A DNA stretch of 64,000 bases, from the NCBI GenBank assembly GCA_037380845.1, contig JARRRI010000022.1, positions 59,163 to 123,162 on the forward strand, written 5' to 3'. This document shows, piece after piece, positions 44,143 to 53,034 of this stretch. This DNA comes from Candidatus Sulfobium sp. (GTDB lineage Bacteria > Nitrospirota > Thermodesulfovibrionia > Thermodesulfovibrionales > UBA6898). A program made the translations under genes and the position numbers. Below the pieces are notes generated by a model. That model did not search any database. It was given only the letters and a program-made list of their open reading frames with translations, and was not told where the DNA came from. How positions within the stretch are numbered: the first letter of the stretch is position 1; every line of letters starts with the position of its first letter.

Positions 44143-44902
44143 ATGAGAAAAGTCTTGTCGGGAGTTTTGATGCTCGGATTTATTCTGGCGTTGGGCGTGT
44201 ACGGTGCGGATGCGCAGTCGCAGCCGCCGGGCGGAACGGGCGGAGGTGTTTCGGCCAGGTGCGCGGATATAATGGGCCCCGGAATGATGGGAGGTCCCAT
44301 GAGGGGTGGCTACGGAATGAGGGGCAAGGGCATGATGGCACCGGGTATGGCGAGCGGTAACATGGGAGGCCGTTGCGGCTGCGGTATGGCGAGCGGTAAC
44401 ATGGAAGGCCGTTGCGGCTGCGGTATGGTGCGGTATGATGGGCCGTCATTTTGGAATGATGGGCGGGAAGGGTAGTATGGGCGGTGTGCATCACCGCCTC
44501 TGGCACTATATCATGAGACTCGATCTTGACCAGAACCAGCGGGCCGAGATCTGGAAAACAAAGACCGACCTGATGAAGAACATGATCCGGAAGAAGGCCG
44601 ACCTGCGCATCGCCATGCTGGAACTGGGTAATCTGGTCCATGCCGACAAAACCGACATGAAGAAGGTCGAGGCTAAGGTAAAACAGATAGAGAATCTGAG
44701 ATCGTCCATGCTCATTTCCGGCATAGAAGCAATGGAGGCCGTTAAGTCGAAGCTGACCGCCGACCAGAGGAAGAAACTGGGCAACATGATGGAGAGCCCT
44801 GGGCGATGCATGATGATGGGTGATGACATGATGAGCGGCGGCATGACCGGCGGAGACATGATGGGAGACGGTATGATGGAAGAAGCTCCGGCTGAAGATT
44901 AA
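44143..44902 (+). pseudogene. Met/Gly-rich periplasmic Spy/CpxP/ZraP-like protein, frameshifted near 44425
   Basis: Signal peptide and GM-rich N part; second frame L.L...Q..I...LTADQRKKL; 39-bp tandem repeat plus a 10-bp duplication at the junction. Confidence 0.8.
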
Positions 44903-44913
44903 CTGACACGCGA

Positions 44914-44957
44914 CCGGCGGGAGGGGCAAAGCGTGACCCGCTTTCCCCTCCTGCCGG
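44914..44957 (+). terminator. Strong GC hairpin after the Spy-like gene (terminator or RNA-stabilising stem)
   Basis: CCGGCGGGAGGGGCAAAGCG-TGACC-CGCTTTCCCCTCCTGCCGG; no U-tract. Confidence 0.4.
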
Positions 44958-45033
44958 CAGGCTCCGGGGCAAACTGAGAAGTTAGAGTTACTTGCCCGGT
45001 TCCTGAGCAATTCCTTAAAGAAGGAGGCTTATC

Positions 45034-45243
45034 ATGAAAAAGAACGTCGGAGGCATCGACAAAGCGATAAGGTTCATTATCGGGATCGTCCTGGGTCTTA
45101 TCGGCTTTTTCGTGCAGATGAGCACCGGCCTTAGAATAGCTTTCTTCGCTGTCGGGGCCATAGCCCTCATCACCGCCTTTACCGGTTTTTGACCGCTCTG
45201 GGCGGTGCTCGGGATCAGCACCCACAAGGAACATTCAGGCTGA
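45034..45243 (+). CDS. DUF2892/YgaP-like small membrane protein with in-frame TGA (candidate selenocysteine)
   Basis: AAGGAGG RBS; MKKNVGGIDKAIR...TAFTGF[TGA 45190]PLWAVLGIST; hairpin 45204-45222. Confidence 0.8.
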
Positions 45244-45252
45244 GAATACATA

Positions 45253-45861
45253 TCAAAGGGAGAGCCCGAATCTCGATAGCGCCCTGGCTGTCGAGGCGTG
45301 GTCAACATGGTGAATGCCGTTTATGCCCAAAGTGCGGGCGACTTCGACATAGAGTCCCCTGTCATCGATGTACACAACGTTTTCAGGCGGAACCTGGGCC
45401 GCATCGAGGGCGATGCGGTAGATATCTTCATCGGGCTTCCGGAAGTGGACAAAGCAGGACACTATGAAGAAGTCAATGAATTCTGCCAACCCGTGGTCCC
45501 TGACTCGCCGGTCTGTCAGCTCCCGCCCTTCATTGCTGACCGCGGCCACCTTCAATCCGTATTTCTTTTTCAGTTCCCGGAACAGACCGATCGTCTCAGG
45601 GTAAGGCGTTGTCCGGAACATGAACTCCTTTAGATCTTCCCGCGGGAAAGACCTTTCCTCATAAAAGATAACGCGGTCGAGGTAAGTATCGAGAGTAAGC
45701 TTGCCTTCCTCGTACGTATCGAAGGTCAGATGGTGCCTCTCGTTCAACTCGTCGATGTCAAAGCCGAAATGGTCGGCGGCTCTCTTTCGTTTCTCATGGC
45801 CCCAGCCGTTTTCGAGCATGACTCCGCCGATATCCAGAAACAGTGCCCTGACAGGTGGCAT
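45253..45861 (-). CDS. HAD-family phosphatase
   Basis: LFLDIGGV, SNE, RKPD, YIDDR. Confidence 0.9.
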   Translation of the reverse strand: MPPVRALFLDIGGVMLENGWGHEKRKRAADHFGFDIDELNERHHLTFDTYEEGKLTLDTYLDRVIFYEERSFPREDLKEFMFRTTPYPETIGLFRELKKKYGLKVAAVSNEGRELTDRRVRDHGLAEFIDFFIVSCFVHFRKPDEDIYRIALDAAQVPPENVVYIDDRGLYVEVARTLGINGIHHVDHASTARALSRFGLSL

Positions 45862-45948: not shown

Positions 45949-48375
45949 TCAGTCTGAAGCGTACCTGTAATCCTTCTTTACTTCCAGAAAGCCTACGACG
46001 CACAGCGTCACCAGGGCTACCGTCAGAAGCCTGACCGGCCCGATGGGGGCAAGATGGAACCGTTCCCTGAGGAAGGGGACGTAAATCCCCAGGAGGAGAA
46101 AACCGGTTGCCGAAACCGCCCACACATTCATAATGCCGTTTTTGAAAAGGCCTATCGAAAAAACGGGTTCCGTGTCGGAGCGGGCGATAAAGGCGAGGAT
46201 GATATGTCCGAAGATCCACGCGGAAAAAGCGAGAGTCTGGGTCTGCCCGAAACTGAAATCCATGTATCGCGCATAAAAATATGCGAACATGACGGAGCAA
46301 AAGAGAACAAAGCCGTTAAGGAGGACCTTCTTCACCAGCCTGCCGCTGAAGACGTCCTCGCGGGGATTGCGAGGCGGCCGGCGGTAAATGCCGGACTCCT
46401 TCGGTTCTGCAACGAAACCGGCCGATGCGGCAAGGTCCATGAATAACTCCAGTACGATGATCTGGATCGGGCTGAACGGCATGGGGACCCCCACTATGAC
46501 CGGCAGCAGAAAGATCAGCACAAGTGCGGTCTTTACCGAAAGATAATACGTAATCCCTTTCCGGAGGTTGTCAAAGAATTTTCTTCCCTCGAATATGCCC
46601 TGGGTAATGGTAATGTAATTGTCGTCCGCCAGGACTACGTCGGCCGCGTCCTTGGCCACGTCCGTTCCCCTGACACCCATGGCTATGCCTATGTCGGCCC
46701 CCTTGAGGGCCAGAACATCATTGACACCATCGCCCGTTACGGCCACCACTTCTCCGTTTTTCTGCAACGCCTCGACTATGCGGTGTTTGTGCAACGGAGT
46801 GGCCCTGGAAAAAACGGAGACGGCCTTCACCAGTTCCCGCAGCTCATCGTCGGTCGCCTCGTCGACCTCTTTTCCCGTTGCTATCCTGTCCGTCTTTATG
46901 CCGACCTCGCCGGCTATAAAACCGGCCGTTCCCGAATGGTCTCCCGTGACCATAATAGTCCTGATCCCGGCCGCCGATGCTGTCCCTATCGTCTCTTCCA
47001 CCCCTTTGCGCGGAGAATCCTCGAAGCCTATGAGGCCTATGAAAGTCATGCCTTTCTCCAGTTCCGTGAAGTCCAGGTCTTCCTCCCCGGAGTGGAGCTG
47101 CCGGAAGGCGACTGCTATCACCCGCCTGCCTTTTCCTGTCTCGGCATCCAGCTCGTCCCCTATTTTTTCGGATATACCGTCGCAGGCGTCAAAGACCTCC
47201 TCCGGCGCACCGCTCAGGTATAGTTCATACCGGTCCTCTTTTCTTCTTATGACGGCCTTCGTATTCCTGTTGCCCGCCCCCAGATTTCTCTGGCGGTATG
47301 CTCCGGAAAATGACGCGTCCGCATTCAGTCTGCCGGCGGCGTTCCTGACTTCCTTTTCCATGGGCTGCAGTATATGCTCCGACAAAGAACCGGCGGCCTT
47401 GCCGAGGATTTCTTTTTTCCGGTCCGCCGGGACGACCGAGACAATCCGCATCTTCCCCTCCGTAATCGTACCCGTTTTATCCGTAACGATCACGGTGGCA
47501 TTGCCCATGGTCTCGGCCCCTTTGAGCCTCTTCACAAGGAATTTTTTCCTGGAAAGAGTATAGGCCCCGAGTCCGAGGACCATGGTTATGATGATCGGCA
47601 ATTCTTCAGGGATGGTGGCAAAGGCGAGAGACAGGCCGGTCAGAACCATCGTCTTGATGTCCTCTCCCCTCAGGATCCCCAGGACCGGGATGAGAATAGA
47701 AAAAAAGACCGCCACAAAAACCAGCTTGCCCGCCAGAGATTTCATCGCAAGCTGCAGGGGCGTCCTGGGAGGTTTCACCTGTTTAAGAGTCCGGGCTATT
47801 TGGCCCAGTCTGGTATTTTCTCCGGTGGCAAAAACTTTTGCCTCGCCTTCCCCTGACAGGACAACCGTACCGGCGTAAATCATGTCGCCCTTCTTTTTGT
47901 CCTGGGGAAAAGACTCCCCCGTCAAGGCAGATTCATCCGCCTGCACGCCCACTCCTTTTTCTATTTCTGCATCTGCAGCGACATCGGTGCCAGGGGTCAG
48001 GACCAGGATGTCGCCGGGCACGACTTCCTCCTTTTCTATTTCGGCGACACCGCCGTCCCTGAAGACCCTCACCCCGGAGGCCGTTATTTTTTCGAGGGAG
48101 GCGATCGTCTTTTTTGCCCTGTACTCGTTGTTAACCTCGGCAAGTATCAGCAACGCGATAACGGTGAAGATGGTGACGCTGTCGAGAAGTCTGCCCCAGA
48201 AGCTGTAAAAGAAACCGACCACAAACAACAGCAGGATCATCGGTTCGGTAACTTCATGTCCTGCGATGCGGAGGAAACTTATTTTTTCGGATCTGTAGAT
48301 GCGGTTGGGGCCTGTCTCCGAGATCCTCCGGCGTGCCTCCTCCGAGCTGAGCCCGCGGATTTGTCGTTCGGCCAT
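45949..48375 (-). CDS. Cation-transporting P-type ATPase (P2-like)
   Basis: DESALTGES, IPEELP, DKTGT, TGD, TGDGVND. Confidence 0.95.
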   Translation of the reverse strand: MAERQIRGLSSEEARRRISETGPNRIYRSEKISFLRIAGHEVTEPMILLLFVVGFFYSFWGRLLDSVTIFTVIALLILAEVNNEYRAKKTIASLEKITASGVRVFRDGGVAEIEKEEVVPGDILVLTPGTDVAADAEIEKGVGVQADESALTGESFPQDKKKGDMIYAGTVVLSGEGEAKVFATGENTRLGQIARTLKQVKPPRTPLQLAMKSLAGKLVFVAVFFSILIPVLGILRGEDIKTMVLTGLSLAFATIPEELPIIITMVLGLGAYTLSRKKFLVKRLKGAETMGNATVIVTDKTGTITEGKMRIVSVVPADRKKEILGKAAGSLSEHILQPMEKEVRNAAGRLNADASFSGAYRQRNLGAGNRNTKAVIRRKEDRYELYLSGAPEEVFDACDGISEKIGDELDAETGKGRRVIAVAFRQLHSGEEDLDFTELEKGMTFIGLIGFEDSPRKGVEETIGTASAAGIRTIMVTGDHSGTAGFIAGEVGIKTDRIATGKEVDEATDDELRELVKAVSVFSRATPLHKHRIVEALQKNGEVVAVTGDGVNDVLALKGADIGIAMGVRGTDVAKDAADVVLADDNYITITQGIFEGRKFFDNLRKGITYYLSVKTALVLIFLLPVIVGVPMPFSPIQIIVLELFMDLAASAGFVAEPKESGIYRRPPRNPREDVFSGRLVKKVLLNGFVLFCSVMFAYFYARYMDFSFGQTQTLAFSAWIFGHIILAFIARSDTEPVFSIGLFKNGIMNVWAVSATGFLLLGIYVPFLRERFHLAPIGPVRLLTVALVTLCVVGFLEVKKDYRYASD

Positions 48376-51753: not shown

Positions 51754-53034
<1,281 letters not shown>

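Follow-up and report, generated by a model that had tools for sequence, protein, structure and literature searches.

A gene on the forward strand at positions 45034–45243 is very probably a real selenoprotein gene, in which the UGA at codon 53 (UGA53) is decoded as selenocysteine (Sec). Positions are those of the 64,000-nt stretch of DNA that was analysed (the window), and the gene is referred to as the window copy. The proposal made for it in the initial annotation, that it specifies a Sec-containing membrane peptide, is supported by the alternation of Sec and Cys at one column of the protein family, by the presence of the Sec decoding machinery in the genome, and by a hairpin seen only in the Sec forms.

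The gene and its product

The gene, its ribosome-binding site and its two in-frame TGA codons are placed as follows:

45021..45027, + strand: ribosome-binding site AAGGAGG, by direct reading, with GGAGG at 45023–45027, 6 nt upstream of the ATG
45034..45243, + strand: predicted selenoprotein gene in full, with 69 codons (Sec53 among them) followed by the terminal TGA, specifying a PF11127 protein with two transmembrane (TM) helices
45190..45192, + strand: UGA codon 53, predicted selenocysteine, at the invariant Cys column of the family and aligning with Cys159 of E. coli YgaP
45241..45243, + strand: true stop TGA; most relatives stop (TAA, TAG or TGA) no more than a few codons away

The coordinates first given for the ATG (45034), the TGA at codon 53 (45190) and the stop (45241) all hold, and start, ribosome-binding site and frame are intact in the window copy. 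Translation table 11 gives only a 52-aa ORF (45034–45192), in agreement with the earlier remark that the gene had been missed by the ORF track. When TGA is read as U, a product of 69 residues is obtained that ends ...TAFTGF-U-PLWAVLGISTHKEHSG; the stretch around its residue 53 reads ...TAFTGF-U-PLWAVLGISTHK. This read-through product is covered from end to end by the Pfam profile PF11127 (YgaP-like_TM, formerly DUF2892), residues 1–66 aligning with positions 1–65 of the 66 in the profile (E 4.5e-21; 75.2 bits, the gathering cut-off being 25.3), which substantiates the DUF2892/YgaP-like identity originally assigned to it. In a search of the whole genome, the window copy was the sole PF11127 gene (65.3 bits, with one TGA inside the match). 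When the protein was compared with NCBIfam, the best match was to an unrelated model, at E 0.21 only. A scan of the + strand for promoters and terminators yielded nothing useful, and none of the 13 runs listed as holding this DNA is an RNA run. In a public run from a separate, independent study (X9), a contig spanning positions 45043–45300 showed zero differences, so the TGA is not an assembly slip.

UGA and Cys codons alternate at an invariant column of the family

When the window protein was aligned with 46 Cys-containing database relatives, seven columns proved invariant (M1, N4, D9, R13, T47, C53 and P54). The earlier claim that the TGA sits on the conserved Cys was borne out, C53 being invariant in these 47 proteins and the codon at the aligned column being TGY in 33 homologous loci. 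A six-frame search of 41 related genomes returned 27 places, 12 of them with TGA and 15 with Cys at the same column, the context being GF-U-PLW in the Sec forms versus GW-C-PPY in the Cys forms. In a sample of 401 genomes of the phylum, matches were found in 117 genomes, with TGA in 13 places belonging to 12 genomes. When both searches were combined, TGA was seen at this same column in 20 loci of 19 genomes, spread over several genera and families; set beside the 33 TGY loci, this is the TGA/Cys alternation among relatives for which the initial annotation had proposed a search. Leaving aside L021, which was not aligned, the other 18 Sec forms show 49–79% protein identity to the window copy, and a close Cys orthologue, P0003, shows 66% identity.

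Metagenomes were scanned with a pattern spanning codons 47–56 only, and thus blind to the hairpin described below. This rendered 44 stretches, of which 39 are family members carrying the TGA; the other five are unrelated to the family and were set aside (L087, L089, L091 and L115, which are one sequence, and L114, which is another). A contig search in which the Sec column was back-translated as Cys, and which is blind to TGA forms, gave three Cys-type or marginal loci. Some copies elsewhere look damaged: L021 is devoid of its N-terminal half, and L098, L108 and L111 are frameshifted. These alignments show UGA53 to be a sense codon, conserved in the column where the family has its invariant Cys.

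A SECIS-type hairpin accompanies the UGA

The UGA is followed by two further elements:

45193..45203, + strand: spacer of 11 nt from the UGA to the hairpin, comprising the codons for P-L-W plus two bases, by direct reading
45204..45222, + strand: SECIS-type hairpin with a 6-bp stem (GGUGCU/AGCACC) and a 7-nt loop (CGGGAUC), overlapping the codons for (A)VLGIST

The arms of the stem (45204–45209 and 45217–45222) pair perfectly around the loop CGGGATC (45210–45216), which begins 17 nt after the UGA and bears G at its positions 2–4. The perfect GGTGCT/AGCACC stem, the loop start at 17 nt and the G at loop position 2 had all been reported before and were found to be correct. According to the legend to Figure 2 of PMC13188914, the bSECIS model of Zhang and Gladyshev allows a loop of 3–9 nt and a stem of 4–16 bp, with G in the first two loop positions, a UGA-to-loop distance of 16–37 nt and an MFE of −7.5 or lower. 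The window copy lies within all four published constraints (loop of 7 nt, stem of 6 bp, loop sequence CGG..., distance of 17 nt, and −8.5), as the initial annotation had held for its general geometry; the fit was assessed by comparing these values with the published constraints.

Single-sequence folding of a 61-nt stretch gave −13.9 kcal/mol with z = +1.01, and 171 of 200 shuffles folded at least as well. By this measure the hairpin does not rise above chance, so the case for it rests on the comparison with relatives. The MFE of the 61-nt stretch, as calculated with RNAfold, favours a competing hairpin, ACCGCU/GGCGGU; this candidate was rejected, as it needs GCG at codon 57 and is lost in the majority of the Sec forms, where that codon is AAG. 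A search of Rfam gave no bacterial SECIS match, only a snoRNA on the other strand (22.3 bits, gathering cut-off 40). The 11-nt spacing between UGA and hairpin presumably resembles that of the minimal fdhF SECIS of E. coli.

The complete 6-bp stem was present at fixed positions in 19 of the 20 Sec loci, as compared with none of the 33 Cys loci, just two of which reached five stem pairs; the mean local ΔG was −9.1 kcal/mol for the Sec loci and −2.8 kcal/mol for the Cys loci. What the initial annotation had named as evidence against a Sec codon, namely close homologues that all have TGC or TGT and no conserved hairpin, was therefore not what was observed, since TGA occurs in 20 loci and the stem is complete in all but one of them. 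The codon choice within the hairpin is nearly uniform: all 18 sequences that have Val use GTG for it, Ser is specified by AGC in 19 of 19 and Thr by ACC in 18 of 19, while codon 57 always has G as its third base, whatever the amino acid (19 Sec sequences). All six pairs are also formed in 32 of the 39 metagenome members. The seven exceptions are three twins of L019, L105, and the three copies disrupted by a frameshift or an insertion (L098, L108 and L111). L019 and its three metagenome twins form four of the six core pairs and, at a ΔG of −4.1, fail the energy threshold of the model.

Pairs were counted in 46 of the 48 distinct sequences found among 59 loci, L108 and L111 having been dropped for indels. 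The six core pairs are retained in 42–46 of these 46 sequences. Changes on both sides were observed in four of the eight counted pairs, compared with 1.4 ± 0.7 in shuffles, and none of 500 shuffles reached four. The changes that preserved pairing were G-C to U-A (L112) and G-C to A-U (L098); the outer seventh pair changes from A-U to G-C in L093 and L112, the loop-closing pair is formed as C-G, A-U or U-A in three lineages, and a change from U-A to U-G in L074 comes at the cost of a Thr-to-Ala exchange. The covariation adds up to 6 cells in 4 pairs, one of them from L098, a copy with a frameshifted N-terminus, and slid controls gave similar or higher covariation scores. True covariation is thin because the stem is almost invariant; in these sequences, what stands out strongly is how little the synonymous sites vary and how sharply the Sec forms differ from the Cys forms. 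Taken as a whole, the comparison indicates that the hairpin is under a nucleotide constraint of its own, specific to the UGA forms and located at SECIS distance.

The Sec decoding machinery and the distribution of the Sec forms

The machinery that the initial annotation had proposed looking for is present in the genome. It includes selA (SelA, E 4.4e-155), selB (wing domain, E 2.0e-20, in a 596-aa frame), a tRNA-Sec with anticodon UCA (tca; 73 bits) and selD, which has an in-frame UGA of its own in the context C-A-G-U-A-S-K (311.9 bits summed). Folding of the region after the selD UGA gave a short hairpin, GUCC/GGAC, with loop UUC. The selA and selB genes lie on the same contig, 5–8 kb past the end of the window. 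Going by what is established for Sec decoding in bacteria, SelB carrying Sec-tRNA(Sec) would bind the hairpin of the window copy (6 bp, 7-nt loop), which begins 11 nt after the UGA, and Sec would be inserted.

In the phylum sample, SelA was found in 194 of the 401 genomes, and the 12 TGA-bearing genomes were all SelA-positive. In family f29, a Cys-form match was obtained in 57 of 75 genomes and SelA in none of the 75; no TGA was seen at the column among the f29 matches listed. SelA was present in 40 of the 41 close relatives, so that set has no discriminating power. The related genomes are kin rather than independent samples, and for this reason the counts of Sec and SelA co-occurrence are given without a statistical test.

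An alternative would be that the UGA is read through as some other residue, be it Trp, Cys, Gly or Arg inserted by near-cognate or suppressor decoding that the hairpin would stimulate, or Cys inserted via the Sec machinery itself when selenium runs short. The comparative data speak to a sense codon and a constrained RNA element, not to the identity of the residue inserted, and Cys insertion at Sec codons under selenium limitation occurs in other systems. Such a reading was nevertheless considered improbable: a UGA in a column where the family has invariant Cys makes the classic Sec/Cys pair, the hairpin agrees with all four constraints of a SelB-type SECIS, the TGA forms occur in SelA-positive genomes only (12 of 12) and are absent from the matches listed for f29 (57 genomes with a match, SelA in 0 of 75), and the gene's own terminator, which is also TGA, is not read through in the relatives.

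A maximum-likelihood (ML) tree was built from 56 rows; L021 was excluded, and the Sec/Cys column was masked. The tree draws on few columns and has many open forks. The 19 Sec rows formed one group with three Cys rows, namely P0003, L044 and L059 (the last on a long branch), at a support of 86/86, and the sister of this Sec-containing group in the ML tree was the Cys clade of f29, which has no SelA. The Sec label requires four changes on the tree, and the starred branches force at least two. Within one taxonomic family, L042 (Sec) is sister to L044 (Cys), with a support of 99/97. The pattern in the tree is the usual one of Sec/Cys interconversion. The hairpin is built from the codons of the family motif V-L-G-I-S-T. 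More speculatively, Sec could arise here repeatedly because there are codons for this motif that already form a SelB-binding hairpin with the correct spacing from the Cys codon.

Coding-type evolution continues beyond the UGA

The synonymous-difference fraction, calculated per codon, is the share of sequence pairs in which the codon differs although the amino acid is identical. The set comprised 19 distinct Sec-form sequences, L021 being excluded because its N-terminal half is missing. The values were as follows:

Codons 1–52, before the UGA: 0.638
Codons 54–56, P-L-W just after the UGA: 0.583
Codons 57–63, hairpin: 0.159
Codons 64–66, after the hairpin: 0.449

Codons 54–56 and 64–66 vary synonymously, with P-L-W and x-K-x being retained; for Pro54, the codons CCG, CCC, CCT and CCA are all used among the 19 sequences. 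The reading frame is open past the TGA in 20 of the 20 Sec loci, and in L038, L039 and L063 it stays open for 41–43 codons, into a Lys/Glu-rich tail. Synonymous variation behind the TGA implies that translation continues past it; the earlier statement that the family-typical tail runs on past the TGA to the stop thus finds support in codons 54–56 and 64–66 and in the frame being open at every Sec locus. The same LGI[SN]T tail is present in the Cys homologues, spelled with other codons and devoid of the hairpin, which indicates that the tail belongs to the protein and does not act as an RNA element alone. By these comparisons, coding-type evolution continues behind UGA53.

The above results bear on the possibility that the TGA is a genuine stop, in which case the gene would specify a truncated protein of 52 residues and the region downstream would hold a non-coding regulatory or terminator hairpin. 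The public gene calls all end at residue 52 (...TAFTGF), and conservation of the hairpin region at the nucleotide level could itself mimic protein conservation. A stop is nonetheless very unlikely, given the synonymous changes on either side of the hairpin, the open frame in 20 of 20 loci (41–43 codons in three) and the differently spelled LGI[SN]T tail of Cys homologues that have no hairpin. The Pfam profile, moreover, aligns through the tail to position 65 of 66, and the truncated form would be left without the invariant Cys-Pro of the family. A nonsense mutation, a pseudogene or a sequencing error in this genome is hardly conceivable, since, although some copies elsewhere look damaged (L021; L098, L108 and L111), the same TGA recurs in 19 genomes and 39 metagenome contigs, the contig from the independent run has no differences, and the window copy is intact in start, ribosome-binding site and frame.

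Predicted structure of the protein

In an AlphaFold2 model based on a 47-row alignment (mean pLDDT 74.5), the protein forms helices at residues 7–26 and 31–50 and a short helix at 54–59, with Sec53 at the turn that links helix 2 to the short one. When compared with E. coli YgaP by hhalign, residues 31–60 aligned with YgaP residues 137–166 (probability 71.8%, E 3.5e-5) in a register that sets ...AFTGFU(53)PLWAVL on ...GISGFC(159)GMARLL, and therefore Sec53 on Cys159. E. coli YgaP (b2668) bears PF00581 at residues 7–99 and PF11127 at residues 115–166 (E 7.1e-8 for PF11127). The available text of PMC4730233 describes YgaP as dimeric, with its rhodanese domain in the cytosol; Cys159 is placed at the C-terminal, cytoplasmic end of TMH2, near an SCN− (thiocyanate) binding site, and SCN− binding brings the two Cys159 side chains closer. 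A sequence search of solved structures gave none with the single protein, and with the profile only a chance 16-residue match to caspase-2 (E 0.66). Foldseek against the PDB gave nothing at E ≤ 0.001, returning generic helical hairpins only. A homodimer prediction, run with an alignment led by the natural Cys orthologue P0003, scored 0.00, which is no answer either way.

The Lys-rich N-terminus and the C-terminal tail would both lie at the cytoplasmic side of the hairpin of two TM helices, which would in turn put Sec53 at the cytoplasmic end of helix 2. Judging from the homology with YgaP and from the Lys-rich N-terminus, Sec53 should be located at the cytoplasmic face of the membrane; as in YgaP, the protein is probably homodimeric. 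In all 19 aligned Sec forms, Sec53 is present without any other Cys, so the selenol would be a lone nucleophile. One metagenome Sec form, L095, keeps S-T-C-K-E-C.

Gene neighbourhood and proposed function

The neighbouring genes differ between lineages; those found in the window and at related loci were the following:

44435..44902, + strand: Metal_resist (PF13801)/LTXXQ-type protein with a Met-rich tail, the upstream neighbour of the window copy (Pfam E 3.5e-9)
Window and its genus (L012, L013, L021): upstream, a response regulator and then the Metal_resist (PF13801) protein; downstream, a convergent HAD hydrolase
L015, L017, L019, L022: upstream, an Fe/Mn superoxide dismutase and then a DsrC-like protein
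L015, L019, L022: downstream, DJ-1/PfpI, then a DUF255 thioredoxin-like protein (L015, L022) or a rhodanese-rubrerythrin fusion (L019)
L014, L016, L020: upstream, cytochrome P460; downstream, DsrE in L020

Downstream of L017, there was no match. In the window, the convergent HAD-hydrolase ORF ends at 45253. From the gene content, the theme of the neighbours is stress defence and sulfur relay, with no single conserved partner, and no pathway can be named. A Cys-type DUF2892 gene was induced ∼10-fold in Azospira under conditions of sulfide oxidation, according to the available text of PMC5358917.

As to function, a tentative proposal is that the protein may be a membrane-anchored selenol which accepts or hands on reactive species of sulfur, selenium or metals, or else buffers redox stress at the membrane. 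Sulfane sulfur, selenium and soft metals would be the candidates for what this nucleophile relays, and oxidants for what it buffers. Compared with Cys, Sec would have the advantage of its reactivity and of resisting irreversible over-oxidation. It is conceivable, though rather doubtful, that the protein represents a new class of selenoprotein, that is, a free-standing dimeric two-helix peptide with a single selenol at the cytoplasmic membrane face, where YgaP has Cys159 beside its anion site, acting as a chalcogen relay or switch at the membrane. In such a relay, an intermolecular Se-Se or Se-S bond could form, and sulfane sulfur or selenium could be carried between soluble neighbours (DsrC-like, DsrE, rhodanese and DJ-1 proteins) and the membrane.

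Discussion

New bacterial selenoprotein families are reported regularly. Judged against the inventories and supplements cited here, the window copy belongs to an uncatalogued selenoprotein family, which lies within a known protein family and uses the standard bacterial machinery. Table 1 of a 2026 review (PMC13188914) gives 119 prokaryotic selenoprotein families or subfamilies with their domain identifiers, and none of PF11127, DUF2892 and YgaP-TM figures in it. DUF2892, YgaP and PF11127 are likewise absent from the available supplements of BSepDB (PMC13326102), of the 2016 ISME J survey (PMC5029168) and of deep-Sep (PMC12013277). The initial annotation had doubted that this was a standard selenoprotein family, and the contents of that table and of the three supplements agree with it. 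A full-text search of the literature, with relevance judged by title and abstract, gave no paper linking DUF2892 or YgaP with selenium. About 40 of the 97 database matches are fragments of 52 aa, and several more end at TAFTGF behind a longer called N-terminus; the names given to these fragments are 'hypothetical' or 'DUF2892 domain-containing'. Since gene callers cut the family at residue 52, the size of the selenoproteome of these anaerobes would be undercounted.

If the reading of UGA53 as Sec is confirmed, a widespread family of very small integral membrane proteins would join the prokaryotic selenoproteome. It would also single out as the chemically active residue the Cys that never varies in PF11127, a domain whose mechanism is unknown and to which the membrane part of E. 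coli YgaP belongs; the 'function unknown' of PF11127 would give way to a testable hypothesis. The gene would, in addition, offer a clear natural example in which the codons of a conserved peptide motif double as a SECIS, and predictors of SECIS elements and selenoproteins could usefully be trained on it.

Among the nearest known systems is E. coli YgaP, a membrane-bound thiosulfate sulfurtransferase whose transmembrane domain is homologous to the window protein. YgaP has an N-terminal cytosolic rhodanese domain (PF00581), whereas the window protein, of 69 residues, is the membrane domain alone; as it lacks PF00581, it is a homologue of the YgaP membrane domain and not an orthologue of YgaP. 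The two also differ in the residue that follows the reactive position, YgaP having Cys then Gly (C-G) and the window protein Sec then Pro (U-P). The Cys-containing PF11127 proteins (such as P0003, L023–L037 and L044–L062) have the same length (∼62–78 residues) and the same two-helix hairpin as the window protein; an N-terminal motif, M-x-x-N-V-G-x-x-D-x-x-x-R, is shared as well, and so is G-[FW]-C-P...LGI[SN]T where helix 2 ends. They have the invariant Cys and no complete stem (0 of 33), while the window protein has Sec together with the hairpin over the V-L-G-I-S-T codons; many of the Cys forms carry one to three extra Cys (an M-T-C-N start, or an S-T-C-x-x-C end).

Compared with the bSECIS consensus, the hairpin of the window copy has a stem at the short end of the range allowed by the model, and each of its codons falls within the peptide motif that the family conserves best, so the constraints on protein and RNA overlap. 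Among the catalogued families, the rhodanese-like forms 1–5, YeeE/YedE, the DsrE-like proteins, the putative mercuric transport protein and the SO_0444 transporter likewise carry Sec in place of a functional Cys; as catalogued in Table 1 of PMC13188914, they are concerned with sulfur or metal handling and use the standard bacterial decoding machinery. In the catalogued rhodanese forms, however, the same table places Sec in the rhodanese domain (PF00581, NF041203, NF045694) and not in a membrane domain of the YgaP type, which is where it is predicted to lie in the window protein.

Conservation and possible decay of the Sec form

In Logan contigs from marsh runs, a 31-letter unitig with a summed depth of ~113 was found at window positions 45185-45215. 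It lies exactly over the UGA-hairpin stretch, and the assembly breaks there. Its loose ends run into the versions of the gene found in other relatives, one of them ending like the homologous locus L041. The UGA-hairpin stretch is identical, letter for letter, between co-occurring species.

Several Sec-form (TGA-bearing) copies differ at the C-terminus. Three of them (L038, L039 and L063, from genomes G366 and G236) form a sub-group in which a Lys/Glu-rich C-terminal extension of 25-30 residues brings the products to 94-96 aa; genome G236 carries two Sec paralogues. The metagenome Sec form L095 keeps the C-terminal S-T-C-K-E-C typical of many Cys forms, and therefore has possible resolving cysteines, which are found in none of the 19 aligned genome Sec copies.

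Other Sec-form copies appeared damaged or incomplete. In the same-genus locus L021 (G001:C8), the TGA, the hairpin and the tail are kept and some 26 N-terminal codons (MKKNVGG...FFVH) are absent; these codons are present in L107, a near-identical metagenome contig. Either L021 is a dead copy that has undergone an in-frame deletion, or the gap is an assembly artefact. Among the metagenome Sec forms, the N-terminus is frameshifted in L098 and L108, the latter also having a 3-nt insertion within the stem, while L111 has a 1-nt insertion after TGG; these three are possibly pseudogenes or the product of read errors. The hairpin stem of the frameshifted L098 also shows a G-C to A-U double change.

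Genomic neighbourhood

The selenoprotein gene is flanked in the window by the following features:

44435-44902, upstream: gene for a Metal_resist/LTXXQ-type protein
44920-44951: near-perfect inverted repeat, GGAGGGGCAAAGCG / CGCTTTCCCCTCC
45253-45861 (-): HAD-family hydrolase, convergent with the selenoprotein gene
45949-48375 (-): P-type cation ATPase (808 aa), next after the hydrolase

The upstream protein has a strikingly Met-rich C-terminal tail (M-M-M-G-D-D-M-M-S-G-G-M-T-G-G-D-M-M-G-D-G-M-M), a composition that points to metal binding of the Cu(I) or Ag(I) type. The inverted repeat, between the Metal_resist stop (44902) and the selenoprotein-gene RBS, may serve to separate these genes or to regulate them; it was not reported by the terminator scan because it has no T-run. 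Downstream, the stops of the selenoprotein and hydrolase genes are 9 nt apart. In relatives of the same genus, a ferritin-like gene comes after the HAD gene in place of the P-type cation ATPase.

Sec machinery genes

Sec-related genes were located as follows:

51754-53019 (-), window: seryl-tRNA synthetase, 6.5 kb downstream of the selenoprotein gene
G000:C22:128271-131636: selA and selB, same contig, 5-8 kb beyond the window end
G000:C20:70713-74222 (L064): selD

The first three genes form a loose cluster of Sec-related genes near the selenoprotein gene, an arrangement that may be coincidence. The selD of the window's genome is itself a selenoprotein gene; S-C-A-G-U-A-S-K is the context of its in-frame TGA. 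The hairpin 3' of this TGA (GUCC/GGAC, loop UUC) appears unlike that at 45204-45222.
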